Positions 11,780 through 58,782 of a stretch of DNA of 64,000 bases are shown one piece after another. The position numbers and the translations under genes were made by a program. The notes beneath the pieces were generated by a model, which saw only the letters and a program-made list of their open reading frames with translations, had not been told where the DNA came from and searched no databases. Source of the DNA: a virus; IMG/VR virus record IMGVR_UViG_3300030333_003379, positions 33,524 to 97,523 of that record. One strand, given 5' to 3'. The first letter of the stretch is position 1. Each line of letters opens with the position of its first letter.

Positions 11780-13510
11780 TCATAACCCCCTTGATATACC
11801 GCTTCCACGAGATCTAGAACGGAATGCTCTGGCGACTTCTTCCGATATCTGCCTTGCTAACTTCCGACCATCTCCACTCACACCATTTACATTGATAGTG
11901 ATATTGGTGTCTCCACCCATACCGCCTCCCATTGCTTTCATGGTTACAGGTATGCTACGGCCATCAGGCAGAGGCACAATAGCCTCTGTTCCGTGTAATT
12001 CAGCAGTATATCCTGTTTCTGGCCCAGATGCGATACCACCTTTAGCGAATTGTGGCTTCTTCATTTCCAACTTCTTGACCCAACCAAGACCCGGAACCTT
12101 AGATGCCAATCGAATACCCTTGTTGATTAACTCAAATAGCGGCCAAACTAGATTGATGAAGCCATTGATGAAGCCTTTAGCGTAATTCCACATGGCTTGG
12201 AATGAGCCAATGATCATATCCTTGAGTCCAGAGAAGATTTTACCTGCTTTCTCTGTGTTTCCTGTTAAAAGAGCCATAACAATACGGACAATACCGATGA
12301 ATATACGGACAACCATCATCACATAGGTAACAACAAAACCAATAGCATTGAGTAACATCTGATAATATGGCTTAACATACGGCCAAGCCCATGATACAAA
12401 CTTGATAATTAAAGATATGATTGCTGCAACTACCACAATAATAAATCCAATCAATTCACCAACAAAACGCATCAATTCGGCAATAAATCCGAATACACCA
12501 GAACTAACCAAGAAGTCAATTAGCATAGTCCACAAATCAACCACAAATGAGATGATATCACTTACGGTTGTGCCGCCATCACCAAATGCACCCATAATGA
12601 GATCCCATCCCATCATAAATCCTTCATAGATAGCAATCCATCCGTCAATGAATGCTTGAACAATACCTGCTTCAATGACCGCTTCAAGGAAGATGAATAT
12701 GGCTTCATATACAGCATTATACAACTCAAAGAATATCTCAACGGCCATAGTCATGGCTTCTGCTATACCACCAAAGAACTCTTCTGCGTTAAACTCTGGA
12801 AGTGATACATTTGCCTTGAGGGTTTCCCAAAGTCCTGTAATTCTATCCATTTGTGCTTGGACTGTATCACCTAAACCACCCACTAAAGCATCCCATGTTG
12901 GCCCAAATGCTTCACCTGCGGTTGTTGCTATACCACCTATTGAAGATTTAGCACCACCCCAATCAATAGCACTCAACGCACCTTTGGCTTTATCCACACC
13001 TGCTTGAACCACGCCAAAGGCATCACCTATCAACGGCAGATCTTCAAGCCATGCCCGTAACGAGCCACCCCCTTGGTCGAATACAGCAACAAGTAGCATA
13101 ACTGCTGCCATAACACCAAAAACGATACCAATCATAGGTAACATAGTCACAATAATACCCGAAAATAACCCCTTTGTAGCACCAAGAACGGCTACAAGGG
13201 GGCCGAAAGTCATTCCAAGCAAACCAACACTCTTAACCATCCCACCAAGCGTTTTATCGGTCTTAGCAGCACCTTTGGCTACATCCTCCGTAGCCTTTGT
13301 GCCATCTTTACCCATGCCACCAAATGCTTTTTTGACGCTTTCAAGGGAAAAGTTCAACTTGATGTATTGATCATACATTGGCCCCAGAAACTTCATCATC
13401 ATTCGATGCTTATCTGGGATAAGATTGAGGGTATCACCATACTTTTCAAGGGTCTTGATGTGTTCAGCGAACTGATAATCCATCCCTGCAATTGTTTTGG
13501 AATCACCCAT
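11780..13510 (-). CDS. Tape measure protein (576 aa)
   Basis: Long hydrophobic helical repeats; C-terminal QFAKGGIASGP...AELHGTEAIVPL motif typical of TMPs; follows the chaperone pair. Confidence 0.85.
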   Translation of the reverse strand: MGDSKTIAGMDYQFAEHIKTLEKYGDTLNLIPDKHRMMMKFLGPMYDQYIKLNFSLESVKKAFGGMGKDGTKATEDVAKGAAKTDKTLGGMVKSVGLLGMTFGPLVAVLGATKGLFSGIIVTMLPMIGIVFGVMAAVMLLVAVFDQGGGSLRAWLEDLPLIGDAFGVVQAGVDKAKGALSAIDWGGAKSSIGGIATTAGEAFGPTWDALVGGLGDTVQAQMDRITGLWETLKANVSLPEFNAEEFFGGIAEAMTMAVEIFFELYNAVYEAIFIFLEAVIEAGIVQAFIDGWIAIYEGFMMGWDLIMGAFGDGGTTVSDIISFVVDLWTMLIDFLVSSGVFGFIAELMRFVGELIGFIIVVVAAIISLIIKFVSWAWPYVKPYYQMLLNAIGFVVTYVMMVVRIFIGIVRIVMALLTGNTEKAGKIFSGLKDMIIGSFQAMWNYAKGFINGFINLVWPLFELINKGIRLASKVPGLGWVKKLEMKKPQFAKGGIASGPETGYTAELHGTEAIVPLPDGRSIPVTMKAMGGGMGGDTNITINVNGVSGDGRKLARQISEEVARAFRSRSRGSGISRGL

Positions 13511-22714: not shown

Positions 22715-22727
22715 CCTATTTAACCTC
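22715..22727 (-). promoter_or_regulatory. Putative BRE/TATA internal promoter GAGGTTAAATAGG
   Basis: Overlaps the MCP stop and sits upstream of the SD of the next gene. Confidence 0.5.
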
Positions 22728-23874
22728 AACTCAAGTCCCGAATCTTTCCGCTTGCTTTGAAGAAAGTGCAGATCAATTCACCCATTGTGTGGAACATACC
22801 CATTTGACCTAGACGGTTAATTCCGAATGGGTCTCCTGTTTCAATACCTGACTCGTGATATAGGGTTGGCTTTGCTGTTGTGAACCAACTGTAATCTGTG
22901 TCGAGGAAATACATACGGCTGCTTCCGTCTTTGACTACATCTTTGGATGGGATGATTGGCACACCGTTGTAAGTTGCAACCATGAATCCACCTTGGATAC
23001 CCGGAACACCCTTTACACCATTTACACCCGGAACAACTCTCTTCATCTCTACGAAGCGTTGTTGTGGCTGCAATAGTTGCTGAATGGTTTCTAGTGTATC
23101 ATAGCCTGTTAGAATGACTTTAGGCTGACCACCATCTTCCCATACGCTCTTGAACATACCGTCAAGAATGTTGAGAGTTAGAGGGCGATCTGCACCTGCT
23201 GCACCTGCATCAACATTACCATCATACCAATTTGTTGCTGTGCCAGCAGCACGAGTCAAGTTGTAGATATCGTGGTCTGTTGCATCAGAAACGAAGTTAG
23301 TTGCTGTTTCAACGAATGCACTTGAAGTAATACGGTCAAGTGAGTTGAAGTTGTTACCAGATACAGTATCAACATCAGTCAAAAGCATCTGATTGATGTG
23401 TTCTGTGTGGTGTTTTGCCATTTCCATCTTCATAACTGCACGAGCATCACCAAGACCATCATCCTTGTCTGCAAGGAACATTGCTGTTTCAGACAGATCG
23501 AATGTGTGAGCCACAGTTCGTGGCTTGGTGCTTACATGAGCAAATGTTGGCTTGGTGGTCTCTGGTAGAGTTGCGTTCTCACCAACACCGCCACCTTTCG
23601 TAAAGTCAGGCTTTGCTGTGGTTACACGCCATCCACTCTTCTCCCATGGCTTCTTAGGCAAGATAGAGAAGGCATTGAACTCTTGGTTCAACTGTGACCA
23701 AACCTTACGACCAAAGATCGCTTGGTAAGTTCCTGTGGTGCTGCTCATCAATGGACTGTCTGCCTTGAGCAAATCAGTTCCAGAGTATGCCCATGCGTTC
23801 TGTCCTGTTCCAGCCCCATAGTAAAGGCGTTCCATATCTTCAATTGTGCGAATATATCCTGTGCTTCCACTCAT
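22726..23874 (-). CDS. Major capsid protein, HK97 fold (382 aa)
   Basis: Follows protease/scaffold. FSILPKKPW, ENATLPET, HTEHINQMLL, YNGVPIIPSKDV, MYFLDT segments fit HK97-type MCPs. Candidate propeptide ends DLLK37|A. Confidence 0.9.
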   Translation of the reverse strand: MSGSTGYIRTIEDMERLYYGAGTGQNAWAYSGTDLLKADSPLMSSTTGTYQAIFGRKVWSQLNQEFNAFSILPKKPWEKSGWRVTTAKPDFTKGGGVGENATLPETTKPTFAHVSTKPRTVAHTFDLSETAMFLADKDDGLGDARAVMKMEMAKHHTEHINQMLLTDVDTVSGNNFNSLDRITSSAFVETATNFVSDATDHDIYNLTRAAGTATNWYDGNVDAGAAGADRPLTLNILDGMFKSVWEDGGQPKVILTGYDTLETIQQLLQPQQRFVEMKRVVPGVNGVKGVPGIQGGFMVATYNGVPIIPSKDVVKDGSSRMYFLDTDYSWFTTAKPTLYHESGIETGDPFGINRLGQMGMFHTMGELICTFFKASGKIRDLS

Positions 23875-23891: not shown

Positions 23892-25199
23892 TCAGTTGCC
23901 CCCAAACAAGGCTCTTTGGCCTAGTTCTTCCAATGCTCTCCAGCCTTCGATACCATCACCAAGGGCTGCAAACTCTTCGTGTGTTGGAACACGAATGTCG
24001 GATGTGGAGGGAATAGGTGCTGCTGACTTCTGAATCTCTGCGTTAGTGTTTCGCAGGGATTCAATTTCAGCCTTCAATGCTGCAATTTGAGAACCGTGAT
24101 CATTCTGCTTCTGAATCTCCAACGCTCGGTTGGTTTCTGCTTCATAGCGGTCATGCCATTCTTTCTCAACAAGTGCTTTTACTGCTTCTTCATCACGAAT
24201 TGCAGAGTATGCTGCATATCCACGCTCAAGGGATTGTGGAGATAGGTCAAGACCTTGCTTGATGACTTGCCTGTTACCCTTAGCCGGGTTCATTGCCATC
24301 TGCTTTGGCTGCTTGATTACATATTTGTTGGACTTAGCGTTTGGAAGGCTAGGTGCAGATGCTAGTGTTGCATCTTCTCCACTACCAATCAAATCACCTT
24401 GTCCACGGTGAGTGTATCCGTGAGAACCATCAACGCCAACCATGTATGCCTTTCCAAGACCAAAGTGGCCTCTTAGTCCATCTAGATCGACACCTTGCTG
24501 GTGTGCAAACTTCTCAAGAGAATCAATGTATGCAATTGCTGCTTGTTCCTCTTGTTTCTGCATCACAGGCGGTGCTGCTGGTGCTTCTGCGTTCTCATTA
24601 GCCATGTGCTTGTTAATTCGGCTCAAGGCATCTCGTATTTCAGTCAATGTTTCAGTTGTTTCTGCGCTCATGTTATCATCATCCATTTTCAATAGGGTGT
24701 ATGTGCTTTCTGGGTTAATCCCCTTCTTGCACAAAGTAATTTCATGCAATTCCATATCCGTGATTTCACGGTGAGAGCCATGTTCTTCTGTGGTCTTGGA
24801 CACACGGAAAAGGGCTTGGCCCCCTATGGAAAATGCTCGCAATTCGCCAGAGCGAACTTGCTTTTGGACTTCACGAGCCTTCTCAATGTCGTCACGAATA
24901 CGGCAGACGACAAACAGGCCGTGATCATCAACGGTGGATTTCCAAACCCTGCCTTCACTATCTGTATAGGAAGGGAGAACTTCTCCAACCTGAATACCGC
25001 TATGTGCTAGTTGCACATTACGGTAAGATGGGTTCGCCATAAACCCACTAAATGCCTTCTTTAGTGCTGAAACAGGGATTCTGTCGCCCTGTTTGTCCAC
25101 CATATCAACGGAGGCATAGCCAGCAATAACTAGGTCGCCATTAACATCGGCTTTCAGAATGAACTCTGAACCCGTTGCTGACCATGTTGCGCTTGCCAT
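23892..25199 (-). CDS. Prohead protease (HK97 type) fused to scaffold (435 aa)
   Basis: LVIAGYASVDMVDKQGDRI...VQLAHS...LRAFSIGG...ELHEITLCKKGINP, then a coiled-coil C-terminus. Start revised using the GGAGTGA SD. Confidence 0.9.
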   Translation of the reverse strand: MASATWSATGSEFILKADVNGDLVIAGYASVDMVDKQGDRIPVSALKKAFSGFMANPSYRNVQLAHSGIQVGEVLPSYTDSEGRVWKSTVDDHGLFVVCRIRDDIEKAREVQKQVRSGELRAFSIGGQALFRVSKTTEEHGSHREITDMELHEITLCKKGINPESTYTLLKMDDDNMSAETTETLTEIRDALSRINKHMANENAEAPAAPPVMQKQEEQAAIAYIDSLEKFAHQQGVDLDGLRGHFGLGKAYMVGVDGSHGYTHRGQGDLIGSGEDATLASAPSLPNAKSNKYVIKQPKQMAMNPAKGNRQVIKQGLDLSPQSLERGYAAYSAIRDEEAVKALVEKEWHDRYEAETNRALEIQKQNDHGSQIAALKAEIESLRNTNAEIQKSAAPIPSTSDIRVPTHEEFAALGDGIEGWRALEELGQRALFGGN

Positions 25200-25222
25200 T
25201 GAATCACTCCAACTCATGTTAT

Positions 25223-30707: not shown

Positions 30708-32510
30708 TCAATCTATCCCAAGACGGTCATCTAAGTCCCTAATCTTGCTATCCGCATTTACTTCTTCGGGTGAGCGAAAATCACGGTCATCTCCAAGGCT
30801 ACCTGCTTGCTTAGGTGCGCCTGTATGACGCTTCACATGATCTGGTGATTGACCTGCCCCTCTACGATTCAAAGCAAGTTGAGCGTTAAGCCCAAGCCGT
30901 CTAAGAGGCGGTAACTCTGTTCCCATAGTAGTCCTTACTGATTCAGGCACAGGGCCACTATCGCCACGATTTGAATCCATTACAGTTCTTTTGAGAATAT
31001 CATCCATGGTCGGAGGCATATTCCAATCACTTGTTTGGACAGGTGCGCCCCCTGCGCCCCCTGCGGGTGCGGGTGCTGCATTAGGTGGTGGTGCAGGTGG
31101 TGCAGGTGGTGCTTCTTTGTAATCGAATTGGATACCTGCACTTGTATCATCACGCATGGTCGCCTCAAACCCTGCTTGCTTCATCTGCATCATGTTACGA
31201 ATCATCATCTCATCCTTACGCATCATCATAATTTCATCTTCTTCCTCATGTGGTGCTAATTTGATATGCCATTCAGTAATCTGTAATGCTTCCAAAAGAA
31301 GTGGGAATAATCTGCCATTGTATAGGTTCTGACTTGCAGCCAAAGCACGATTGGTAACTACGATCTGCATACCTTCATTATTCAAACCGCCTCCAGATAC
31401 ATCATTCATAAACACATTTGATACACCAAAGAAGGATGAAATACGCTGACGGATATCATCTTTGATAGGGATATACTGCAATTCTTCAAGTGTATCCATC
31501 ATACGGACATACTCAAGACCACCACGACCACTCTCTGTTTCAACACCAACTGTGGGAATATATTGAGGGTCACGCTCAAGATGTTCCTGTATATTTCGTG
31601 CTGTCCTCTCCACAGTTTCAAGGTTGGATGATTTAATGACCATTACACCCCTTGGCATTCTGCGCTTTTGATATGCAGCATACACATAATTGTCCATAGC
31701 AATGAGAGTATTGACCTGTCGCCATAATGTTGCTACGGGTGAACGGCCATACAATTTAGATGGCGACCATTTGCTGATATGAATTACTTCTCCTTCGGTA
31801 TAGACCTGTCCAGATCCCACACCAGCCAAATTGATGTAATGCACAGGCACAACAGGCAATCCTGTCTTTGGACACTTCTCATCTTTATCTCCTGTTCGGA
31901 ATGACCTATCCAACAGGCTCGTGTATTGCTTGCCACCCTTCATACCACGCTTATCTGCTACGATACGCATGAAGATAGGGTCAGCACGAGTTATCTCCTT
32001 GATACGGTAAAATTGTGGCTTGCCACTACTTGGATCAACAAAGTATTCCTTAGTGAGAATGATGTAAGCATCATCCACGATATTCAAATCCATTTCCACT
32101 TCACGAAGCACTTCAAGGAATGATTGCCCCATTCTATTTTCATTTTCAAATAACATTTCAGCATACTCAAGTTGCTCTTTATCTGGTGGTCGGACTTCTC
32201 CACCACAATCCTTGCAAACATCCACTTCTTTTTGGTATTCGGTTTCACAATCTCTGCATTTTACCACAAAGTTTGGTTTCCAATCCCAACCCTTACGGAA
32301 ACATTCAGTAGCAAGATGATTAAGAATAGAACGCAAAACAAGGCACTCATAGGCTGCTGCATACAATGCGGGGATAGTAATACCCTGCAACAATGGTGGT
32401 TCTTGCACACCAGAAGTGAATAATGGCATCTCTGGAGTCGGTGTGCTATGCCTCTCCATATCCATGCCAAGAGCAGAGAATAATCGCTCAATTCGTTTCT
32501 TATCAGCCAT
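30708..32510 (-). CDS. Portal protein (600 aa) with inserted zinc ribbon and P/A-rich C-tail
   Basis: DLNIVDDAYIIL, EVIHI..SPSKLYGRSPV, RRMPRGVMVI, RQRISSFFGVSNVF are portal-like; CRDC/CKDC insertion. Confidence 0.9.
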   Translation of the reverse strand: MADKKRIERLFSALGMDMERHSTPTPEMPLFTSGVQEPPLLQGITIPALYAAAYECLVLRSILNHLATECFRKGWDWKPNFVVKCRDCETEYQKEVDVCKDCGGEVRPPDKEQLEYAEMLFENENRMGQSFLEVLREVEMDLNIVDDAYIILTKEYFVDPSSGKPQFYRIKEITRADPIFMRIVADKRGMKGGKQYTSLLDRSFRTGDKDEKCPKTGLPVVPVHYINLAGVGSGQVYTEGEVIHISKWSPSKLYGRSPVATLWRQVNTLIAMDNYVYAAYQKRRMPRGVMVIKSSNLETVERTARNIQEHLERDPQYIPTVGVETESGRGGLEYVRMMDTLEELQYIPIKDDIRQRISSFFGVSNVFMNDVSGGGLNNEGMQIVVTNRALAASQNLYNGRLFPLLLEALQITEWHIKLAPHEEEDEIMMMRKDEMMIRNMMQMKQAGFEATMRDDTSAGIQFDYKEAPPAPPAPPPNAAPAPAGGAGGAPVQTSDWNMPPTMDDILKRTVMDSNRGDSGPVPESVRTTMGTELPPLRRLGLNAQLALNRRGAGQSPDHVKRHTGAPKQAGSLGDDRDFRSPEEVNADSKIRDLDDRLGID

Positions 32511-33927
32511 TTACAATCGCCTCCACCCATGTATCTATTTTTTCTTCTGATACATTCCATTGCTTCAACAATTCGACTTGTATCTCTGGATTATGTCTAT
32601 ACTGTAATATCCGTTCTGCATTGATATTACCATCAAGTGCTGAAAGGAAAATAGTAGCATCTTCACGCTTATTCGTGAGATATGGCAAGGCTTCACTTGC
32701 TGCCTTAGTGAAAGATCTAGAACCTTCAATCACGAACTTATCTCCCTCCCAAGTAATACCCTCCACACCCAATCTCTGTTTTAGCACTACGGTATAGTCC
32801 TCCCCACGCTTGGTGTTAAAAGGCAGAATAAGACGGGGTGCGCCTGTTGGTGTTAAGTCCAAAGAACCCTCTACTTCCCATAGGTTTCCTATGAAAGAAT
32901 CAACTGTTTTGAGGAAAATGGGTGGTTTTGGTGTTCCGTAGTATAGTGTGCGATCATCATGCTTCGTGCCTTTACCAACTACTGTTACATCAAACAAATA
33001 CCCATATGATTTGATTAAGGCCCCAATTTCCGATGAGGATGCCTTTACACCATACGATGAAAGGGTTTGTGAGTTCATTGTGCCATGTTTGAGTAAAGTG
33101 TTATGGCAATCTGCTAAAATGTTCCTCTCTCTTCGACTCAAGCGGTTTTCAGCATCAAGACGGCTATGCCAGCCTTTCCAGATTTCACTTCTTTCATCTT
33201 CTCCTTTTGCCTTCTTAACTCCAACAATTGTCTGCCTCAAAGGTAATTCCAATCTATCTGGGAATAAGGCAATTAGATTGTAATCGTTGTCTTTCAACTC
33301 AAGCATATTCCAATCAGTATCTTCCCACCAATCGAATTGTTTGAGAACCGCTTTCTGCTCTTGATGTAATAGTGCGATTACTGAATCTAGAATGGTATCT
33401 TCGCCAGCCTTTTCCAAAACATCAAGAAGTTCAGCACCAGATATACCAAAATTGTCCACAAAGAATGTTTTGGTAACAGGTGTTTCTGCGGTTGGTGGTG
33501 CGGTAGCATCCGTTCCCGGTTGCTCTGTGGGTGCGCCTCCACCTTCATTACCATCCATGCCACCAATTGCTTTACCTGCGGTAGCCTCGGCTGGCATGGC
33601 AGGGGCTTCGGCAGGGGGTTCTTGAATTGGTTGTTGTTCAGCCTGTCCTTGAAGTGCTTCTAACTCCTGTTGAGCAGTAGCCAACTCCTGTTCCTTCTGT
33701 TTTACATTTTGTTCTGCCGTAGCAATAGCGGGATCTGGTTGTTGATTGCCACCATTTTGACCAATACCCAACTTACCTGCTATTGCACCAACTGCTTTAC
33801 CAGCAAGTTTTGCAGCACCAACAACAGGTGCTGCCAACGCTTTACCTGCTACCTTTGCAGCAGGTGCAAGGAACTTTTCAATAGAGTCGTCTATTGTCCG
33901 AATCTCTGGATTATATTCAACTCTCAT
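32503..33927 (-). CDS. Multidomain protein (474 aa): A/G-rich helix, disordered linker, HTH-like region and C-terminal LAGLIDADG-like domain
   Basis: FIGNLWEVEGSL...FVIEG...ALPYLTNKREDA resembles degenerate LAGLIDADG domains. Confidence 0.5.
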   Translation of the reverse strand: MRVEYNPEIRTIDDSIEKFLAPAAKVAGKALAAPVVGAAKLAGKAVGAIAGKLGIGQNGGNQQPDPAIATAEQNVKQKEQELATAQQELEALQGQAEQQPIQEPPAEAPAMPAEATAGKAIGGMDGNEGGGAPTEQPGTDATAPPTAETPVTKTFFVDNFGISGAELLDVLEKAGEDTILDSVIALLHQEQKAVLKQFDWWEDTDWNMLELKDNDYNLIALFPDRLELPLRQTIVGVKKAKGEDERSEIWKGWHSRLDAENRLSRRERNILADCHNTLLKHGTMNSQTLSSYGVKASSSEIGALIKSYGYLFDVTVVGKGTKHDDRTLYYGTPKPPIFLKTVDSFIGNLWEVEGSLDLTPTGAPRLILPFNTKRGEDYTVVLKQRLGVEGITWEGDKFVIEGSRSFTKAASEALPYLTNKREDATIFLSALDGNINAERILQYRHNPEIQVELLKQWNVSEEKIDTWVEAIVNG

Positions 33928-35348
33928 ACATCAGCCCAACCTATTCGCTTTGTCCACGCCTCACCATCAAGCACTACAATGTTATCCCTGTATTCCTTGG
34001 TAGCCTGAACCGCCAAAGCCAGAGCGATAACTGTATCATCGTGCCGGCCAAGGGACTCCATTTTACCATTCGGAAGCATGGTGAACATAGACAACTCATT
34101 CAAAAGCGTATTCATGTGTCTATGGGTTGCCCCCTCATCTTTGTAAGGAATTATCAGATGCCGTTGTTCAAAATGTAACTGTAATGCGTGGATAACTGCC
34201 TCCTTACGCATACGACTCATAGTGAATGGTTTTATTGGCAGATCACTAATCTCTTTCAACACTTGATGGAATGCTTGAGCGAAATTGTTTGTTTCAAGTT
34301 CTACGATTACAGGATTGTATCTCGCATTGAGTTCGATTATCTTATCAATTTGTGATGAAAAGTCCATACCTTTCTCGTGGTGCATCCACACTATGCGCTT
34401 ATGGCGATTCTCATCCATAGCCAAAACAACCATGCAAGTATAGTCGGCTTTTCTATCTGGGCTAATCGCTGGATCCCAACCAATGTAGTAATTCACATCT
34501 TCTTCAATTGGTGGTTGGAACTCCAATTTGTATTCTTCATCTTTGCATGGGTCGGTCATTTCCACAGGGAATAGGCTTGAATCGCTTGCAATTGGTTTGC
34601 ATAGATATTCACGAGTAAATGCAATTGAAGTCATTTCACCCCTACGGGTTTGTAGTGCCTCTAATGACCACCTTTCAGGCCACAATGGTTTCCCGGTTTC
34701 CTCATTGATAGCAGGGTATTCATTAACCCAATATCCTTTCAACCCCTTCAATTCTTGATACAAATCAGTATATGAGAACGGTGTTCCAACGATGCACAAC
34801 TGTGCTGTGTGGTGAAGCACAGGTAACAAAGCAGTATAGAACCAAGTGGCAATATGAGTCATCTGTGATTCTGCTTCACTAGAAAGAATATCGTCAAGCA
34901 CTACAATATCAGGGTGCGCCCCACGCACCGCTTTTCCAACGGACATAGCAGCAATAGATGATTTGTTGGTGAACTTGAACTTCTGCTTCGCCCATCCTCT
35001 CTTGGGTTTTAGGTGTTGAAGTGCAGGTGTTGTTTCAATCAACTCATTCATTTTACCCATGTGTTCGATGGATTGATGCTGACTGTGTGAAAAGAATAGA
35101 ACTTCTGTGCCATCATTGTATGCCATTTTCCATAGTAAATACACACGATAAAACACAGATTTGCCGTGGTCACGAGAAGCAATTACGCAGGTCTTGTTAT
35201 GGTTCTCCGAAGCATCATACCATTCTTGGTGAAAGTCGGCTAATTGGAACTTGCAAATATCTTCAAAGAAGTATTTGAAATCCCTGCGACCCATCTCCCA
35301 ATCCACTTTGGATGCTAGATCAAGAACTGCTTCACTCACGATAACCAC
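33924..35348 (-). CDS. terL: Terminase large subunit (474 aa)
   Basis: Walker A ASRDHGKS, Walker B IVVLDDI, coupling motif IVGTP, RNase H nuclease IGWDPA...DYT...HDDTVIALALA. Confidence 0.95.
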   Translation of the reverse strand: MVIVSEAVLDLASKVDWEMGRRDFKYFFEDICKFQLADFHQEWYDASENHNKTCVIASRDHGKSVFYRVYLLWKMAYNDGTEVLFFSHSQHQSIEHMGKMNELIETTPALQHLKPKRGWAKQKFKFTNKSSIAAMSVGKAVRGAHPDIVVLDDILSSEAESQMTHIATWFYTALLPVLHHTAQLCIVGTPFSYTDLYQELKGLKGYWVNEYPAINEETGKPLWPERWSLEALQTRRGEMTSIAFTREYLCKPIASDSSLFPVEMTDPCKDEEYKLEFQPPIEEDVNYYIGWDPAISPDRKADYTCMVVLAMDENRHKRIVWMHHEKGMDFSSQIDKIIELNARYNPVIVELETNNFAQAFHQVLKEISDLPIKPFTMSRMRKEAVIHALQLHFEQRHLIIPYKDEGATHRHMNTLLNELSMFTMLPNGKMESLGRHDDTVIALALAVQATKEYRDNIVVLDGEAWTKRIGWADV

Positions 35349-43319: not shown

Positions 43320-43706
43320 TCACATCCCTTGTTTCATCGGGCAACCCGTAATTGATAGAGTATCGTCATCTAATCCACAAGTCGGGCATATTTTCCCACC
43401 CTTTTCGATTGCACATGGTGATTTCACCACAGACCAACCTGTGCGGAATGCTCGGTCATTGGGTGCAGATTTATTCAACAACTGTGTCGTTTCCATTAGA
43501 GTAAGATTTTCAATTTGATCACCATTCATACCTTCATACATAAGGTGTTGGTAAATGGGTCCTAACCGAATGCCGTCATTTTCAAATGAATATGTGGGCG
43601 AATCGTTTATCATATTCTCCACTTCTCTTAGAGTAAGATTTTCGATATCATTACCACTCATGCCCTGCGCCATAAAAAATCGGTAAATAGGGTCTAAATC
43701 AGCCAT
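43320..43706 (-). CDS. Small protein with an internal duplication, an internal tag (AFRTGWSVVK) and C-terminal Cys cluster (128 aa)
   Basis: PIYRFFMAQGMSGNDIENLTL and PIYQHLMYEGMNGDQIENLTL repeats; tag at 43422-43451; CPTC. Confidence 0.6.
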   Translation of the reverse strand: MADLDPIYRFFMAQGMSGNDIENLTLREVENMINDSPTYSFENDGIRLGPIYQHLMYEGMNGDQIENLTLMETTQLLNKSAPNDRAFRTGWSVVKSPCAIEKGGKICPTCGLDDDTLSITGCPMKQGM

Positions 43707-44409
43707 CTTCAAGCACCCCCGCTTCGGATAATGCTTGACGCAGAACACGCCATTCTTCTGGTGATTTTTCGGAGAAGTGTGCTTGGATTACAGTCAAGAC
43801 GCTCACCTGCTCGTTAGACCCAATGGCTTCGGCTCTTTCAAGATATTCCCCAATATCACTCAAAGTATCCCTAATTTCCTTGTGTAACTTAACTGCCGTG
43901 TCTAAACCTTTGTAATCCAAAGTGCCTTCTTCATTCTGTTCCTCTCGTAGTAAATCCACATGATCATTGAACAGGCTATTCAGCCGTTGAAGATTATTTT
44001 CTGTTTGGCGCATAGCACCTTGAACGGTGCTAATCGTCTGTGGTAATGTTTCGATTGCCACTTGACGCTGAATAATAGGTTGCACATGGTTTTGCATATG
44101 ATGTGATAAGGCATCAGTAGTAATTTCTAGATCATCAGCCATAGCATCGAGTGGAACTATGTGATTGAGAATACTTTCCTCAATTGTCGCTCTTTCAGGA
44201 TGAGTGCATAGAGGGCATTCGGAATTACTGTTATTGTGATACTCACCTGCGTGTCGCCTCATGTGCCTGTGAGCAGTTCCTTCTGCCCAACCTTGTTGAG
44301 CATCTAATTCGGCTTCTTCAAGAAGTCCAAGACGGATATTTCGCTCAAAGGCATCTCTGTCTGGATGTTGGCAGAATACACAGTTCCGTCTAGTCCTACG
44401 ACCCACCAT
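43699..44409 (-). CDS. Double zinc-finger/HTH protein, possible terminase small subunit (236 aa)
   Basis: Two CxxCxHPxR...HxxxH repeats, then HTH-like and coiled-coil segments. TerS role is inference. Confidence 0.5.
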   Translation of the reverse strand: MVGRRTRRNCVFCQHPDRDAFERNIRLGLLEEAELDAQQGWAEGTAHRHMRRHAGEYHNNSNSECPLCTHPERATIEESILNHIVPLDAMADDLEITTDALSHHMQNHVQPIIQRQVAIETLPQTISTVQGAMRQTENNLQRLNSLFNDHVDLLREEQNEEGTLDYKGLDTAVKLHKEIRDTLSDIGEYLERAEAIGSNEQVSVLTVIQAHFSEKSPEEWRVLRQALSEAGVLEDG

Positions 44410-44421
44410 GAAGGTGCGATA

Positions 44422-44652
44422 TCATTCATCCTTATGTGTTTTCTCATATATCTTGCGGTGAAGGTTGCAATATGGTGATGGTTTCTGAACCGCCTTCTTA
44501 CAACGGTTGCCTGATTTTGCTATTGCTTTACACCTGTGTGGTTCGTGGTCAATCACAGGCTTGACCTGCGGTTGTGCCACTACATACGCTTGTGGTTGCG
44601 GGGCTACTATTCGCCCGTTAATACCGAAAGGCAGCATACTGCCGAATGGCAA
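44422..44652 (-). CDS. Small C3H-type zinc-binding protein (~76 aa)
   Basis: RCKAIAKSGNRCKKAVQKPSPYCNLH; start uncertain. Confidence 0.55.
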   Translation of the reverse strand: MPFGSMLPFGINGRIVAPQPQAYVVAQPQVKPVIDHEPHRCKAIAKSGNRCKKAVQKPSPYCNLHRKIYEKTHKDE

Positions 44653-44878
44653 TAGTCATCGTGAGTAATAGCCCGAAAAACATAGCCATCATTTCACCTG
44701 TTCCAAGTGATGGCCCTTTCCAGATTAACATGGTCAATGAAAATAACATGAAAGCAATAATGAAAATCATTGTGGCACTTTCAACCAACATTACTTTCGG
44801 GCTAAACATATCCACCATTGCTGATGACCAATTAACCTCTCCTTGCATAGCATTCTGTTCTCGATCTCTATCCGACAT
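44618..44878 (-). CDS. Two-TM membrane protein (86 aa)
   Basis: Hydrophobic helices ATMIFIIAFMLFSLTMLIW and MMAMFFGLLLTMTIAI; GGTGA SD before the ATG at 44878. Confidence 0.65.
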   Translation of the reverse strand: MSDRDREQNAMQGEVNWSSAMVDMFSPKVMLVESATMIFIIAFMLFSLTMLIWKGPSLGTGEMMAMFFGLLLTMTIAIRQYAAFRY

Positions 44879-44897
44879 ATTTTCACCTTCCATGTTA

Positions 44898-45575
44898 TCA
44901 TAGTCCAACTGCTGCACCCTTCGCAGCCATGTTCATACCTTGCCCAACAGTAGCACCAAAGCCACCGTTCTGTTGAACCGCATTGCCCATCATGCCACCA
45001 AGAAGGCTACCGAAAAAGCCCGGTTGGGATGCAGGGTTCTGCATTTGATTCATCATCATACCTTGTTGGTGTGCTGCAAGGAACATCTGTAATTGTTGTT
45101 GGTTTGCATTTAGGGTGTTTTGTGCTGCACCCTGTGCTTTTTGTAGAGTAAGAGCAAGATTTTCTGCTGATAGTGTTGCTAGATCCGATGGTAATGACCC
45201 CGCATCCAAAGTCAAAACATCGTTTTCTATCTTGAATGATACATTAGCAAAGAACTCCTTGACTGATAGCATCATAATTTCTCCAATTAAATCAAGAACT
45301 AGAGCCATATTCTGTGAAATCACGAACATTGATACCGGGTCATGTAAAGCCAATAATTGAGATGTTGCCAGAACGGGATCATTTGCAGCCTGTTGCATCA
45401 TAGGGTTCTGTGCCTGTTGCATCATACCCATAGCACCCAAGCCACCCATTTGTTGTGGTTGTTGCATACCATAGCCACCCATTTGCCCATATCCTTGCTG
45501 TGCTGCCAAAGAAGGCGCACCAAACTGCTGTGCCGTTTGTGTTTTATTTCCGCCTCCGAATCCAAATAGCCCCAT
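44898..45575 (-). CDS. Q/G/M-rich protein with a helical core (225 aa; MGLFGFGGG...)
   Basis: Low-complexity termini; GGTGA SD before the ATG at 45575. Confidence 0.65.
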   Translation of the reverse strand: MGLFGFGGGNKTQTAQQFGAPSLAAQQGYGQMGGYGMQQPQQMGGLGAMGMMQQAQNPMMQQAANDPVLATSQLLALHDPVSMFVISQNMALVLDLIGEIMMLSVKEFFANVSFKIENDVLTLDAGSLPSDLATLSAENLALTLQKAQGAAQNTLNANQQQLQMFLAAHQQGMMMNQMQNPASQPGFFGSLLGGMMGNAVQQNGGFGATVGQGMNMAAKGAAVGL

Positions 45576-45588
45576 ATCATTCACCTTC

Positions 45589-46497
45589 CTATTGTTGTAT
45601 CTGTCCTTGTTCCATTTGCGCTTGCATTTGCGCCTGTGCTTGGGGGTTTATTCCCATTTGACTCTGCTGTGATAGTAATTCCATCTGCATAGCCCTTAAA
45701 TCGAAAGTCACCGTAACCAAATCCGCTATACCCGTCATCGGGTTTGGATGCTGCGTCATAGTAACTCCTTTTGAGTATTGTGCGTCTTGTTGCACCATTC
45801 GGAAGAATGGCTCATACTTCATCAATGATTCAGGAGTGGATCTGTTCTTAGCGGTGTTTTTACCTGTAATACCGGGAACTCGTAAAAATCGTGTTCCTTT
45901 TGCAACCTTCTTTCCAAACCCTTCTTCTGCCATTTCCTGTTCTTCAAGCATACAGCGTAAAGTATGGTAGATGTGTAAGTGAGCAGGGCATAAGGTGCTA
46001 TTCATCTCATCACCATGATCCCCATGTGTGCGAGCATGAGGCTTCTGTGCCTGTCCTGTATCCTCATTGAACCAATAGATATCTGCCAATGATAGTCCTG
46101 TTCGGTCATCAACGATATGAGAATAAGCATTGTCGCCTTCTAAGAATCTGCGAACATCTACACCGCAACAGGCACACTCGTGTGCTGCATTGTAGCGATA
46201 TACCTTGAATAACCCAAGGTTGTAATTCGGTGGTCGCAATGCCTTGCGAAGCATTTTGATATTCTTTCTCCGAGCCTTAGCGGGATTCTTGTGGTTGGTC
46301 TTGAGATTTATCTCAACCGTTGGTATCATTTGCTCATCTCCCATATCACCAGATGAACCTGCGCTTGCCATTTCTGCTCTCTGTTGCGCTTTCAACAACT
46401 CGTATGCTATACCTGTTTGTTGCGATAAAACACGCAACTGCTCGTCAGGAACACCATTGAGCGAGATCCCGCCACCACCAAAGAAGGGTATGCCCAT
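45589..46497 (-). CDS. Putative zinc-binding protein (302 aa; MGIPFFGGGG...)
   Basis: HECACCG and TLCPAHLH; Q-rich C-terminus. Confidence 0.6.
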   Translation of the reverse strand: MGIPFFGGGGISLNGVPDEQLRVLSQQTGIAYELLKAQQRAEMASAGSSGDMGDEQMIPTVEINLKTNHKNPAKARRKNIKMLRKALRPPNYNLGLFKVYRYNAAHECACCGVDVRRFLEGDNAYSHIVDDRTGLSLADIYWFNEDTGQAQKPHARTHGDHGDEMNSTLCPAHLHIYHTLRCMLEEQEMAEEGFGKKVAKGTRFLRVPGITGKNTAKNRSTPESLMKYEPFFRMVQQDAQYSKGVTMTQHPNPMTGIADLVTVTFDLRAMQMELLSQQSQMGINPQAQAQMQAQMEQGQIQQ

Positions 46498-46536
46498 ATG
46501 ACCATGTGAGGGCTAACAGGATGATAAAACCTCTCA

Positions 46537-47262
46537 TCAAATTAAGTGAATAGTGTCCACTATCGCTCTTTCGACATTAAGGCCGTATTGTGCCGCAATA
46601 GCCTCAACATTTGTTGGGATACCTGCTCGCCTTAATCTTCTCAATTCTTCTTGGAAAGGTAATACCATCCTATACTGCCTTTTCAAACCCATAGACCACA
46701 TAGCATCAGCCTCTGGTGTCCACCACACATCCATTTTGTTTAACAAGAGGCAAACTACCTTCGGTTTCCACCCCTTTGCCTTTTTCCGCATTTTGCGACT
46801 AAATGTGGAAGGATATTTGGTGTTCGTCACTAAATCCACTATGTATTGAAACCCTGCAACTGCATCCATGGCTGCCTGTGGCGAAAGAAGTATTCTTTCA
46901 TCAACCACATAGAAAATCACATCTCTGTGGTTCTCAACAATATCTTCTGCCCACATATTTCGATATTGTTGCTGACCGCCAATATCAGCAGATGTAATAG
47001 GAACACGATCCCCTTTCCAGCGAACCTGCTTCTTTGTGCTTCTTGGCATTTTGAATGAGCCGTTTTGCACAGCATGGCTAGTTCGCAATTCTAAGGGTAT
47101 GGGGTCAATATCACCGGGAACGGTAAGATATTGATCTAATGTGGTCTTTCCTGTAAGGCTTGGGCCGTATATTCCGACTTTATGTGGCCTTAGCAATCTA
47201 TACACATAGGTCGCAATCTGGGCAGACCCTAGCAATAAATGCCCTGCAAACATCCAAGACAT
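46537..47262 (-). CDS. Small GTPase, Arf/Sar1-like (241 aa)
   Basis: G1 GPSLTGKT, G3 DIGGQQQYRNMW, VIFYVVD, G4 LLNKMD, G5-like AIAAQYG; hydrophobic N-terminal helix. Confidence 0.85.
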   Translation of the reverse strand: MSWMFAGHLLLGSAQIATYVYRLLRPHKVGIYGPSLTGKTTLDQYLTVPGDIDPIPLELRTSHAVQNGSFKMPRSTKKQVRWKGDRVPITSADIGGQQQYRNMWAEDIVENHRDVIFYVVDERILLSPQAAMDAVAGFQYIVDLVTNTKYPSTFSRKMRKKAKGWKPKVVCLLLNKMDVWWTPEADAMWSMGLKRQYRMVLPFQEELRRLRRAGIPTNVEAIAAQYGLNVERAIVDTIHLI

Positions 47263-47267
47263 TCACT

Positions 47268-47489
47268 TCACTTCCCCCGAATCCAATTCCATGCGTTTTC
47301 GGGGCTGATATTGGCCCAGATATCCAATCCGACCATTACCAAAAAGGTGAGGGATACGCTACCTATGAGAACTAAAATCAATTTGATATTGTTTGTGGCT
47401 CTTTCTAATCGCCTTTCATATGCGTTTTCAGCAAGAATCATACTCATTGCTTCTGCCTGTCGCTCATTGGCGGTGCTAAACGGCCACAT
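47268..47489 (-). CDS. Small single-TM membrane protein (73 aa)
   Basis: IKLILVLIGSVSLTFLVMVGL; GGGGAA upstream. Confidence 0.65.
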   Translation of the reverse strand: MWPFSTANERQAEAMSMILAENAYERRLERATNNIKLILVLIGSVSLTFLVMVGLDIWANISPENAWNWIRGK

Positions 47490-47500
47490 TCATGTTCCCC

Positions 47501-47974
47501 TCATGGTGTGAGCATTGGTGCTTCTTCTTCATCCTTTTGCTCGGAATGTGGTTCATTCGGCAAACCAAAGGTCTGTTGCCCCATAGCCTGTGCATACATT
47601 TGTTGTTGTTGCATCTTACCATATTGATACTGTTGGTCTTTACGCATTCTGCGTTCTTGTAGCCTTTGTTGGGATCTTAGCCACTTATCATAGCGATTCT
47701 CTTGAGCAAACTCTGCTCGCATTGCTAGAGAGTCACGAATACCACCAACATGGAATAATACCATTGAAAGACAGAGGAAGCCGAATGCAATCAAACCATA
47801 CTGTAATCCCATTTCACCTGCACCTGCGGCTGGTAAATACCATCCCATGTGCGATACTGATACTGCTACACCTGTAAGTAGCGATTGCCATAGTAGCATA
47901 GCAATCAAATTGATATCAATTCGGTTTTCGTCTGGGCCACCAAATGGTGGCATTTTTCCCGGTTGTTGTGGCAT
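47501..47974 (-). CDS. Two-TM membrane protein with Q-rich cytoplasmic tail (157 aa)
   Basis: Hydrophobic helices; start revised to MPQQPGK after the GGGAGTGA SD. Confidence 0.65.
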   Translation of the reverse strand: MPQQPGKMPPFGGPDENRIDINLIAMLLWQSLLTGVAVSVSHMGWYLPAAGAGEMGLQYGLIAFGFLCLSMVLFHVGGIRDSLAMRAEFAQENRYDKWLRSQQRLQERRMRKDQQYQYGKMQQQQMYAQAMGQQTFGLPNEPHSEQKDEEEAPMLTP

Positions 47975-47981
47975 TCTTCTC

Positions 47982-48131
47982 TCACTCCCCTGTGTTTTGT
48001 CGAGCCTGTTCCTGTTCAAAATACTTCTTCAATACGAAATTAACGAAAGAGGACTTAGATTCTCTACCTCTCGCTGCTTCCATTTTGGCAAATAAATCAT
48101 CCGGCATTACTACGGACACATGACGGCTCAT
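47982..48131 (-). CDS. Ribbon-helix-helix (CopG/Arc/MetJ-like) regulator, 49 aa (not in the ORF track)
   Basis: Manual translation MSRHVSVVMPDDLFAKMEAARGRESKSSFVNFVLKKYFEQEQARQNTGE*: alternating beta strand, then two helices with SxFV. Confidence 0.75.
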   Translation of the reverse strand: MSRHVSVVMPDDLFAKMEAARGRESKSSFVNFVLKKYFEQEQARQNTGE

Positions 48132-48135
48132 GTGT
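48116..48135. promoter_or_regulatory. Perfect inverted repeat ACACATGA-N4-TCATGTGT, candidate operator
   Basis: 8-bp arms overlapping the RHH start codon in the divergent promoter region. Confidence 0.55.
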
Positions 48136-48170
48136 AAATCCCACTACTGTTAGGGCTATGAAGGTTGTGA

Positions 48171-48178
48171 TTAAATAG
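48171..48178 (+). promoter_or_regulatory. Putative TATA box TTAAATAG for a leaderless plus-strand transcript
   Basis: 22 nt upstream of the ATG at 48201; no SD before that ATG. Confidence 0.5.
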
Positions 48179-48765: not shown

Positions 48766-49608
48766 ATGAAACCCATTGAGATATATGAAGTTGGCCCAAG
48801 GGATGGCTTACAAGCACTTTCTCATACTGTTTCTATTGAAGATAAGGTTGATTTAATCGAATCTCTGGTCAATGGTGGGTTGATTGATATTGAAGTGGGT
48901 TCTTTTGTTCACCCCAAATTAGTTCCAAGTATGGCGGATTCGGATGAAGTATTCAAGGCAGTATGGCACTTAGATGCCTGTCTTGGAGTCCTTGTGCCAA
49001 ATCACAGGGGAATTGAGAGAGCCAAAAAGGTCGGTGCAAAATACTACAACATATTCTTCTCCCCTACTCATTCATTCAATGTAGCCAATCACGGTAAATC
49101 ATACCAAGAAGTGGTTGATCACTATTATCAAGCACTAGAAGGAATACCAAAAGAGAATATCCGAGTATATCTTTCAATGGCATTCAGATCTAACAAAAAG
49201 GAAATGAGTAGAGCAATGAAAGATGCTTGCGCCCTTGGCACTACTGTGGTATTATGCGACACAGATGGAACGGCAACCAATGAACAAGTGTATCACACTA
49301 TACGCAGAGCAAAGCAACATACCGACAATATAGCCCTTCATCTTCACAAAAGCACCAAGTTATTCCAACATATTGCTACTGCATACGAAATGGGGGTCAC
49401 TCAATTCGATAGTAGCATAGGAGGCATGGGTGGTTGCCCCTTCGTCAAGGGGTCAGAAGCAAACCTTGCAACAGAAGCATTAGTCAAGTGGTGCAACCAA
49501 ATGCACATCCCTTGTGGTGTATCTCTGGAGGATTTAGAACCTGCTTTAGAAATTGTAAAGCGAATCAAAGTCCCTCATCAACCCGTCTTGGTTGAATCCC
49601 CAAATTAA
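48766..49608 (+). CDS. hmgL: Hydroxymethylglutaryl-CoA lyase (DRE-TIM family, 280 aa)
   Basis: IYEVGPRDGLQ, IEVGSFVHPKLVPSMADS, LCDTDG, ALHLH, FDSSIGGMGGCPF...ANLATE. Confidence 0.9.
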   Translation: MKPIEIYEVGPRDGLQALSHTVSIEDKVDLIESLVNGGLIDIEVGSFVHPKLVPSMADSDEVFKAVWHLDACLGVLVPNHRGIERAKKVGAKYYNIFFSPTHSFNVANHGKSYQEVVDHYYQALEGIPKENIRVYLSMAFRSNKKEMSRAMKDACALGTTVVLCDTDGTATNEQVYHTIRRAKQHTDNIALHLHKSTKLFQHIATAYEMGVTQFDSSIGGMGGCPFVKGSEANLATEALVKWCNQMHIPCGVSLEDLEPALEIVKRIKVPHQPVLVESPN

Positions 49609-57237: not shown

Positions 57238-58782
57238 ATGCAGGGGCAACCAATCTTCATCATGCAGCAAGGCACGACACAAGAACAAGGCAAAACGGCA
57301 CAGTCGAATAATATCGCTGCCGCTAAAGCAGTAGCACAAGCAGTTCGGACTACACTAGGGCCAATGGGCATGGATAAGATGCTAGTGGATGAAAGTGGAG
57401 ATGTAATCATCACAAATGATGGTGCAACCATTCTTCAAGAGATTAACATTGAACACCCAACGGCTAAGATGATTATTGAAATCGCTAAAACACAGGAACA
57501 GGAATGCTATGATGGCACAACATCTGCTGTGATTGTCGCAGGTGAACTACTCAAGCGTTGTGAGGAACTTATTGATCAGAATGTTCATCCCACAGTCATT
57601 TGCCGTGGATTGCGAAAGGGAATGTCTTTCCTTCTATCAGATTTGAAAAATTATGAAATCAATGATATTGATTTGGATAAGATTGCCAAAACCGCCCTTA
57701 CAGGCAAGTCGGCTGACTCATTCAAGGACATTATCTCTGCGATTTGTGTTGAAGCGGTGGAAAACACCGACAGCCTTGAAGATATCCGTATTACCAAGGC
57801 ACTTGGTGGTTCAGCAGGGGATAGTGAGATAATCAACGGTATTATTCTCGATAAAGAGCGTTGCCACCCCGCAATGCCTTCTCATCTTCAACCATCCACC
57901 GATGGTTGGGCTATTGCCCTAATTGATAGTAATCTTGGAGTAAAGCAGACCGAAATGGAGGCAAACATCCAGATTACAGATCCCGCACAGATTGAAGCGT
58001 TCTTAGCAAAAGAAGAAGCCGAATTGCAAAAGATGGCAGAAGATTTCCATGACCATGGTGTGCAAGTGGTTCTGTGCCAGCGTGAAATTGATGATTTAGT
58101 CAAGTATCACTTTGCTAAATTGGGCATCATTGCCGTTGAGAAGGTAACAAAGAGCGATATGGAAGCCGTAGCAATGGCTTCTGGTGCCACAATTATCAAC
58201 AACATCAATGATATGAGTAACGATGCCAAAGGATTCTTTGAAGAAGTTAAACAGGAAATGATTGGTGAAATGCCTATGCTATTCCTTTACCATGGTCAAA
58301 CACCTGCCATGACTGTATTACTTCGTGGCCCTACTACACACTTCGTTGAGGAAATTGAAAGAGCCTTTGATGATGCAGCAGGTGTGGTCAAGGTCGCCAA
58401 AGATGACGGAGTTATCCTTGCAGGTGGAGGATCTACTTACGCAGGTCTATCCAATTCACTAGCAAATCATGCTAATCACCATGGTGGCAGAGAAGGAATG
58501 TCTATGCTGGCACTATCAGTAGCACTTGAGTCCATTCCACGCACTCTAGCAGAGAATGCAGGTCTAGACCCGGTTGATGAGATGATGATGCTTAACCAGA
58601 CACATTCAGCAGGTAACAAGTATATGGGTATCAACATCGAAGTCGGTGGCACTATTGATATGAGAGATCTAGGTGTCTATGAGCCAAAGCGTGTGGTTGA
58701 GCAAGCACTCAAGTCAGCAGTTGAAACTGCAATCATGGTGCTTCGTATTGACGACATAATTTCATCACGAAAGACCGACTAA
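57238..58782 (+). CDS. ths: Group II chaperonin (thermosome subunit, 514 aa)
   Basis: [26 protein letters not shown], helical protrusion region, [17 protein letters not shown]. Confidence 0.95.

Follow-up and report, generated by a model that had tools for sequence, protein, structure and literature searches.

Arf proteins are small GTPases that act on membranes, and this type of switch protein drives vesicle budding in eukaryotes. The defining feature of Arf is an N-terminal amphipathic helix, and an Arf-family protein, GerdArfR1 (PDB 8OUN), has been described from Asgard archaea (bioRxiv 10.1101/2024.02.28.582541). A relative, the archaeal vesiculating GTPase ArvA (formerly OapA), drives vesicle formation in haloarchaea. 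In Haloferax volcanii its deletion abolishes extracellular vesicles and its overexpression raises them, its own best hidden Markov model match is Arf, and its zinc-ribbon neighbour ArvC has been proposed to be similar to a GTPase-activating protein (GAP) (PMC10927574). Here we describe a 241-amino-acid (aa) GTPase encoded on the minus strand, at 46537-47262, of a 64,000-nucleotide stretch of viral DNA (the window), which corresponds to bases 33524-97523 of the 99,897-bp IMG/VR record IMGVR_UViG_3300030333_003379 (estimated completeness 94%); coordinates are positions within the window unless stated. Judged by sequence profile and predicted structure, this protein is real, Arf-like and very divergent. 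It would place a small GTPase switch of the Arf-like kind in a novel architecture and a novel biological context, and its putative function is discussed below.

Against the Pfam Arf model (PF00025) the GTPase scored 15.8 bits (E 0.0097), below the cut-off of 22.3. Arf was nonetheless the commonest sub-threshold Pfam match in the family, found for 18 of 28 members with a best E of 8e-4. A profile built from these 28 diverse members and searched against all PDB sequences matched Asgard GerdArfR1 (8OUN) best, with an E of 2.5e-9 and an alignment running from the N-terminal helix to strand 4. The next matches were Arl8 (E 4e-5), followed by Rab33B, an Entamoeba Arf/Sar protein and G-alpha subunits. 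An AlphaFold2 model from the 28-sequence alignment reached a pLDDT of 90.8 and a pTM of 0.86, and superseded an earlier 15-sequence model (pLDDT 71) that was poor in the switch region. The model matches hundreds of small GTPase structures, its G domain is nearer to Arf/Arl than to Rab, Ras or Rho, and its single predicted conformation resembles GTP-bound Arf structures. MglA was absent from the 60 best PDB profile matches and from the 50 best structural rows. In a library of viral structures the sole matches were giant-virus Rab, Ran and Ras proteins, and a tblastn search of 50,697 GenBank phage records gave no match. The Pfam Arf model matches 13 of 14 control prokaryote genomes in a six-frame search, so that a genome-level search for Arf is uninformative.

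Relatives of the GTPase are numerous in marine metagenomes (more than 100 protein clusters at 90% identity) and lie on 256 IMG/VR contigs, many of them 90-110 kb long. Residue conservation was counted in 173 distinct family sequences, with the following landmarks:

47191-47259, minus strand: hydrophobic N-terminal helix (residues 2-24), then a basic cluster; A6-G7-H8, S13 and Y21-R22 conserved
47140-47166, minus strand: G1/P-loop GPSLTGKTT (residues 33-41); G33, G38, K39, T40 and T41 invariant or nearly so
47080-47085, minus strand: R60-T61 in an elongated switch I; R in 167/173 and T in 169/173
46951-46986, minus strand: G3/switch II DIGGQQQYRNMW (residues 93-104); D93, G96 and W104 invariant
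46759-46824, minus strand: polybasic insert between helix 3 and strand 5 (residues 147-168), K/R-rich across the family
46729-46740, minus strand: G4 NKMD (residues 175-178); N175 and K176 in 173/173, D178 in 172/173

The family consensus for G1 is GxxxxGKTT, and a G5-like (S/A)AQ is likewise invariant or nearly so. The protein carries intact G1, G3, G4 and G5 motifs of the Ras superfamily (TRAFAC), and a likely G2 threonine, on a Rossmann-like G domain. The spacing of DIGGQQQYRNMW is identical to that of Arf DxGGQxxxRxxW, and the string VIFYVVD is also found in the GTPase, so that every Arf-type motif listed in a preliminary description of this DNA (DIGGQQQYRNMW, VIFYVVD and NKMD) is present. 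Within switch II, position 97 (codon 46972-46974) is Q in 119 sequences, D in 35, E in 9 and H in 7, and position 101 is R in 84 and W in 71 of the 173. Switch I is about 16-20 residues longer than that of Arf. Its T61 is likely to be the Mg-coordinating G2 threonine, the alternative candidate, T76, being variable in the family, and R60 is a candidate arginine finger acting in cis. In MglA, the catalytic pair Arg53-Thr54 lies in switch I and Arg53 is an intrinsic arginine finger (PMC3199381); we regard the likeness of R60-T61 to this pair as a lead. The variability of Q97 alongside the invariance of R60-T61 hints at a hydrolysis mechanism independent of the switch II glutamine. The polybasic insert, absent from canonical Arf, contains a helix at residues 156-164 in the predicted model and could bind the membrane or a partner.

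The N-terminal helix departs from the Arf type. Residues 3-20 have a mean hydrophobicity of 0.76-0.87, a hydrophobic moment of 0.07-0.18 and no net charge; by contrast, moments of 0.23-0.64 and net charges of +2 to +7 are seen in the corresponding helices of GerdArfR1 and ArvA. Packing against other helices is suggested by the conserved A6-G7-H8 and S13, and the whole looks like a permanent, SR-beta-like anchor and not a nucleotide-gated helix. A distant family member (locus L088, 23% identity) has an unambiguous N-terminal transmembrane (TM) helix. The hydrophobic helix of the preliminary description is therefore there, at residues 2-24, but is TM-like instead of amphipathic in the Arf manner. 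Likewise, its Arf-like identity is borne out by the profile search, with GerdArfR1 first, and by structure comparison, while membership of the Arf family proper stands on the switch II signature and the G-domain structure and falls short on the Pfam threshold and the amphipathic helix. We found neither a grouping with MglA, Era or dynamin nor a lack of conservation among the neighbours, so the refuting condition that the preliminary description set on this point does not hold.

Comparison with described systems places the protein more closely. With Arf proteins (Arf1, Arf6, Arl1, Arl8 and GerdArfR1, 8OUN/8OUM) it shares the switch II spacing, NKxD, a helix before the P-loop and its best profile and structural matches. 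It differs from them in its longer switch I with Arg-Thr, in an insert of about 20 polybasic residues before strand 5, in a Gln97 that is not universal, in its TM-like uncharged helix and in being a gene of a tailed virus of a non-Asgard archaeon, and no ArfGAP or Sec7-like partner was detected. Similarly, no Sec23/24-like coat or Sec12-like guanine nucleotide exchange factor, as used by Sar1 (COPII), was detected beside the viral GTPase, whose helix is not amphipathic. The adjacent Arg-Thr in switch I is common to MglA, which differs in that the viral GTPase has an Arf-type switch II and that no MglB/Roadblock partner was detected. Giant-virus GTPases (for instance mimivirus Rab, PDB 5XC5) are recent captures of eukaryotic Rab, Ran or Ras by viruses of eukaryotes, whereas the GTPase described here forms an orphan family in archaeal viruses, without a close cellular source. 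With ArvA it has in common that both are small GTPases with an N-terminal helix that interacts with the membrane (putatively so in the viral protein), encoded in an operon with a zinc protein. ArvA has motifs of its own (DTPG and SALTG), a cationic amphipathic helix and OapB/OapC as neighbours, and the viral partners are unrelated to these.

To place the GTPase relative to cellular proteins, the viral profile was run against 301 Thermoplasmatota genomes. It gave exactly one weak match in each of 134 genomes (E 1e-4 to 2e-7), always over the portion with strand 1, the P-loop and switch I. The matched GTPase is about 210 aa long, begins with a cationic amphipathic segment and has MMR_HSR1 as its best Pfam match. 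In the six loci (among L094-L102) where neighbours could be read, it heads an OapA(ArvA)-OapB-OapC cluster, and Pfam confirms OapB (PF09846) and OapC (PF09845) in three of them. Because the genes for OapB and OapC come after it, we identify the matched GTPase as OapA/ArvA, which by these sequence searches is the nearest cellular relative in the host phylum. Alignment of the viral family with ArvA by hhalign gave a probability of 96.8% and an E of 2.9e-10 over the N-terminal 73 columns only. We also considered the viral cassette as a diverged ArvABC operon and rejected this for the partners, since the zinc and Q/G/M-rich proteins introduced below aligned to OapB and OapC with hhalign probabilities no higher than 1%.

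Searches of 101 genomes of Poseidoniales, the order to which the host belongs (see below), found neither ArvA nor OapB, although the controls H. volcanii and Methanosarcina acetivorans were positive for OapB, and the viral-type GTPase was found in none of 200 other Poseidoniales genomes. Marine group II archaea may therefore lack the known archaeal vesiculation system. Since the viral-type GTPase, ArvA and OapB are all missing from the searched Poseidoniales, the viral gene would not be a recent capture from the host. Within the genomes searched, the virus appears to bring an Arf/ArvA-like switch to a lineage without the known archaeal one.

The GTPase gene lies in a block of eight minus-strand open reading frames (ORFs) at 44422-48131, which is followed by a ninth gene and preceded by a putative promoter element:

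48170-48177, minus strand: TATA-box-like TATTTAAT, archaeal type, as read from the sequence; in the divergent intergenic region, about 43 nucleotides (nt) upstream of the RHH start codon
47982-48131, minus strand: RHH-like protein, 49 aa; strand-helix-helix pattern, putative regulator at the head of the array
47501-47974, minus strand: tmA, 157 aa from its ATG; two TM helices and a long, charged, Q-rich C-terminal tail
47268-47489, minus strand: tmB, 73 aa; MWPF motif conserved at the N-terminus, a charged helix and a single TM helix at the C-terminus
46537-47262, minus strand: the divergent Arf-like small GTPase, 241 aa
45589-46497, minus strand: zn302, a Cys/His protein of 302 aa
44898-45584, minus strand: QGM228, a Q/G/M-rich protein of 225-228 aa
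44618-44878, minus strand: tmC, 86 aa from its ATG; two TM helices
44422-44652, minus strand: zf76, a small 76-aa protein with a C-terminal CCCH zinc-finger-like motif
43699-44409, minus strand: g236, with zinc-braced HTH-like repeats and a coiled coil

All eight ORFs of the preliminary description were found where it placed them, all on the minus strand, with the sizes it gave when ATG starts are taken, including its three TM proteins (tmA with two TM helices, tmB with one, tmC with two), and all are under purifying selection. Compared with the two nearest relatives, every block gene has a non-synonymous divergence (dN) of 0.08-0.37 with saturated synonymous divergence (dS), and dN/dS is at most 0.23 wherever it can be computed (0.11 for the RHH-like gene, 0.08 for tmA and 0.13-0.23 for tmC). 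Because of this low dN and a dN/dS of at most 0.23, the 73-aa and 86-aa ORFs are real genes. The end of tmB and the start codon of the GTPase are 5 nt apart, adjacent block genes overlap or are separated by 39 nt at most, and a terminator scan gave no minus-strand terminator-like site inside the block. These features together point to co-transcription, and TATTTAAT could serve as its promoter. A scan for sigma-70 promoters and terminators was unenriched; it uses a bacterial model, inapplicable to an archaeal virus. The linkage asserted when the block was called an operon is sound, but the block is not a closed unit: it continues unbroken into g236, several large proteins, the terminase and the whole head-morphogenesis array.

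Conservation of the cassette was assessed by tblastn in 80 related loci, 14 of which, spanning the family, were inspected ORF by ORF. A zn302 homologue was found beside the GTPase in 80/80 loci, g236 in 79/80, QGM228 in 73/80 and tmA, tmB and tmC in 51-53/80. The order tmA-tmB-GTPase-zn302-QGM228-tmC was constant in 14/14 inspected loci, including a clade at 36-39% GTPase identity. In terms of size and topology this order reads as a 150-200-aa protein with two TM helices, a 75-85-aa protein with one, the GTPase, a soluble pair of about 310 aa and (the Q/G-rich one) about 210 aa, and finally a protein of about 82 aa with two TM helices; tmA, tmB and tmC were recognised by position and topology, and QGM228 by position, in every inspected locus. 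The same order also occurs on contigs binned with other organisms (L084, L085). Around this intact core there is turnover of accessory genes, namely the RHH-like gene, the zf76 slot, p142 and an HMGL-like gene. The linkage to membrane, zinc and Q/G/M-rich proteins is thus conserved across related viruses. More distant lineages share no other detectable genes with the window virus: in L088, a JGI contig with a GC content of 58%, the GTPase comes after a 3-TM and a 4-TM protein and before a DUF2213-family protein and ORFs of head-gene size, and in L092 it follows a run of small single-TM proteins.

By the structural gene content of the window this is a tailed virus:

22726-23874: HK97-type capsid protein
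23892-25217: prohead protease
30708-32510: portal
33924-35348: large terminase
57238-58782: group II chaperonin (thermosome subunit)

DNA methyltransferases are also encoded in the window, and the genome outside it encodes a family B DNA polymerase, an RFC-like clamp loader, a PD-(D/E)XK nuclease, a primase large-subunit-like protein and an ERCC4 nuclease. Magroviruses, for which marine group II archaea are the assigned hosts and which are among the commonest viruses of the surface ocean, have a gene set that includes a thermosome subunit (PMC5434244), and the gene content, thermosome subunit included, marks this virus as a magrovirus. A copy of the GTPase at 52% identity lies on a 106-kb viral contig (L082) within a single-amplified genome labelled Candidatus Poseidoniales. 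This supports Poseidoniales, and with it the non-Asgard archaeal host that had been proposed at the outset. The thermosome gene of the window is 9 kb away from the cassette on the opposite strand, unlike in L085 (4059-8967; a bin named 'Methanobacteriota archaeon NP128'), where a thermosome gene is directly upstream of tmA-tmB-GTPase-zn-QGM.

The partner proteins match no described family: Pfam and PHROGs searched over all cassette proteins gave nothing above threshold. zn302 has a basic N-terminal segment and invariant C108, C170, H173, H175 and H178 (codons 45964-46176), a Cys/His cluster from which we infer zinc binding. Its 719 homologous clusters include none with a name, and no Pfam, PHROG, PDB-profile or ESM Atlas match was obtained. 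We consider it a candidate regulator or effector of the GTPase. An ArfGAP-type zinc finger was examined and rejected: the Cys pairs of such fingers are 16-17 residues apart and those of zn302 about 60, and no ArfGAP chain was matched in the PDB. QGM228 begins with an MGLFG motif, which is followed by a disordered stretch rich in Q/G/M, about 100 aa of folded core and a tail rich in G/M/Q that contains FG dipeptides; it has no Pfam or PHROG family and no usable ESM Atlas neighbour. In loci L001-L080, tmB opens with MWPF or MG[WR][LI]F (47478-47489 in the window) and QGM228 with MG[WL]F or MVWPF (45564-45575), and PF(F/M)GGG is often present close to the start of the zinc protein. The aromatic starts of tmB and QGM228 recall the MG..F starts of Arf and ArvA. 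This common aromatic motif could be a membrane-insertion or docking motif.

The small regulators flanking the core are less constant. The RHH regulator claimed previously is a real gene, with 17 invariant positions among eight homologues, but it occurs in 51/80 loci only, all of the nearer clade, and its RHH label comes from the pattern alone, no Pfam or PDB profile having matched. zf76, found in 20/80 loci, has a weak Pfam zf-primase match below the cut-off (E 0.0016). In other clades its slot holds a 136-143-aa protein with seven Cys (L022 7104-7526, L031 8660-9091 and L048 6892-7302), whose start is Asp/Gly-rich and EF-hand/dockerin-like in L048, with similar NxDGK-type stretches in L022 and L031, so this slot appears to be filled by differing small metal-binding proteins. 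g236 has two tandem CxxC...HxxxH repeats with invariant C10, C13, H49, H53 and C65, C68, H104, H108, followed by a C-terminal coiled coil, and its PDB profile shows a weak similarity to GerE/ArsR-type HTH proteins (E 0.006). Standing at the border between the cassette and the morphogenesis genes, it may be a DNA-binding protein and a candidate small terminase or late regulator.

We tentatively propose that the purpose of the cassette is late-stage membrane remodelling for virion release, a reading to which we give somewhat less than an even chance. Four points favour virion release: small membrane proteins are concentrated in the cassette, the scanned ORFs include no recognisable lysis enzyme or holin, the location between a small regulator and the packaging genes mirrors the late operon of lambda, and the nearest characterised relatives bend or bud membranes. 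Indeed, few small membrane proteins are encoded in the genome other than those of the cassette, and no lysis enzyme or holin family was recognised in the 99.9 kb, where the scan covered the module and the large ORFs of the window and, beyond the window, ORFs of 190 aa or more. The lack of a recognisable lysis gene, first noted for the window, thus extends to the ORFs scanned genome-wide. The topology of tmA, tmB and tmC is compatible with holins, and none of them matched a holin family in Pfam or PHROGs. The only other small membrane ORF of the genome, an alternative holin-like candidate, is a 69-aa ORF with an N-terminal TM helix outside the window (G000:C1:23563-23772, minus strand), the last gene of a long minus-strand late array.

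The viral order, from a regulator through the membrane cassette and a DNA-binding protein to terminase and portal, parallels the lambda late operon with S-R-Rz at its start, and we use this as an analogy only. Phage lysis cassettes and this one are alike in having small membrane proteins with charged C-terminal tails, placed after a regulator and before packaging genes. They differ in that an endolysin is present there and none was recognised here, and no relation in sequence or fold was found, none having been sought; to our knowledge, a GTPase forms part of no known lysis cassette. By this analogy, the cassette would do in a host without murein what a lysis cassette does for a phage. How head-tailed archaeal viruses leave the cell is, according to a review, completely uncharacterised (PMC10791045). 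A GTPase in these viruses is mentioned neither in that review nor in the magrovirus papers that we searched, and the system accordingly has no description in that literature, in keeping with its earlier presentation as undescribed.

For virion release we envisage the following course of events. The virus would make its own membrane-bound GTP switch, whose N-terminal helix would anchor the G domain at the cytoplasmic face of the host membrane in the style of SR-beta, with the polybasic insert facing lipid. In the GTP state, the enlarged switch I/II surface would engage the zinc protein, the cytoplasmic tails of the membrane proteins, or both. GTP hydrolysis, possibly through Arg60 in cis, would then determine when or where the membrane proteins come together as a lesion or as a curved, vesiculating patch. 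In its full form, with the cassette as the release machine of head-tailed archaeal viruses, in which an anchored Arf/ArvA-like GTPase times or places three membrane proteins together with a zinc regulator and an FG/Q-rich scaffold, this proposal is speculative and we hold it to be rather unlikely as a whole.

Several points weigh against a role in release. No homology was detected between the partners and holins, PVAP, ESCRT, coat proteins, ArfGAP, ArfGEF, OapB or OapC, and the likeness of the GTPase to ArvA is confined to the 73 N-terminal columns. Roughly one family member in four has Asp or Glu in place of Gln97, so hydrolysis may not follow the classical Arf route. Predicting the complex of the GTPase (residues 20-241 with GTP/Mg) and zn302 (residues 55-272) gave no answer (score 0.00), which is evidence neither way. 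Metatranscriptome RNA amounts to three short contigs in one dataset, possibly DNA carry-over. Late timing is deduced from gene order, the position at the head of the morphogenesis array suits an assembly role equally well, and the function proposed draws on sequence and gene context.

The alternative that survives best, though we judge it unlikely, is a membrane-tethered platform for assembly or replication. There, the anchored GTPase and the Q/G/M-rich FG proteins would nucleate a compartment or condensate for capsid assembly or DNA packaging, with the GTPase as a recruitment switch, much as coats are recruited by Arf and Sar1. The cassette runs directly into g236 and the whole head module, low-complexity Q/G/M tracts occur on tmA, zn302 and QGM228, the GTPase of L088 directly precedes the DUF2213-family protein and ORFs of head-gene size, and the thermosome gene comes directly before the cassette in L085, all of which would fit such a platform. 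However, nothing ties the cassette proteins to capsid or terminase proteins, the uninformative GTPase-zn302 prediction adds nothing in its favour, and tailed viruses are not known to us to require membranes for head assembly.

Less probable still is a device for host takeover or exclusion, that is, a membrane complex that alters the envelope (its transport, energy state or receptor display) and blocks superinfection or defence. Small viral membrane proteins often serve superinfection exclusion, and one remote member of the family (P0123) is encoded on a contig of bacteriophage appearance that also carries an integrase and two kinds of anti-defence gene (Tad2-like and Acb5). Yet genes of this kind are usually variable accessories, whereas the cassette keeps its order in 14/14 loci and its soluble core in 73-80/80, and it sits with late structural genes and not with early ones.

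We think it very improbable that the cassette genes are mere neighbours through rigid synteny, or that the GTPase is an inactive scaffold that binds GTP without hydrolysing it. Magrovirus genomes are broadly syntenic, so gene order alone is weak evidence, and Gln97 is replaced by Asp or Glu in 44/173 sequences. Nevertheless, the GTPase stands beside small or polytopic membrane proteins even in L088 and L092, p142, HMGL and zf76 come and go around an intact core, and all nucleotide-binding residues are strictly conserved. Finally, a targeting receptor like SR-beta (PF09439), which anchors SR-alpha at the endoplasmic reticulum, would have the GTPase dock viral membrane proteins, or ribosomes translating them, for insertion or positioning, and would agree with the anchor-like helix, but it is equally improbable, given that none of the neighbours was recognised as an SRX, longin or roadblock-like partner, that SR-beta is absent from the 60 best PDB profile matches and scores below Arf and Arl in sequence and structure, and that its biological context differs.

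What is new here is the ranking of the predicted structure nearer to Arf than to Rab, the TM-like helix, the link to ArvA, the failure to find ArvA and OapB in the searched Poseidoniales, and the distant lineages in which the GTPase is again linked to membrane proteins. Were the release proposal correct in its full form, this would be the first case among viruses of prokaryotes of lysis or egress controlled by a GTPase, and a membrane switch of the Arf-like kind would have evolved outside Asgard archaea and eukaryotes. Arf-like, putatively membrane-bound GTPases carried by viruses of non-Asgard archaea, without a close cellular source, bear on the spread and diversification of these switches before eukaryogenesis or in parallel with it. 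The cassette also provides a concrete set of six or seven genes for expression and testing, for which no host culture is needed.

Three further genes deserve mention. In the tail region, a 576-aa protein (11780-13510, minus strand) has about eight predicted hydrophobic segments and may be a tape-measure or ejection protein with membrane-inserting segments. The HMGL-like gene (48766-49608, plus strand; Pfam E 4e-25), a mobile auxiliary metabolic gene, adjoins the cassette on the opposite strand, and in some relatives (L006 and L007, at about 9940-10790) it is placed downstream of p139. The accessory gene p142 (43320-43748, minus strand) is tblastn-positive in 7/80 related loci, and a near-identical strain contig from a seawater metagenome does without it, position 43315 being joined straight to 43709 with two other letters between.

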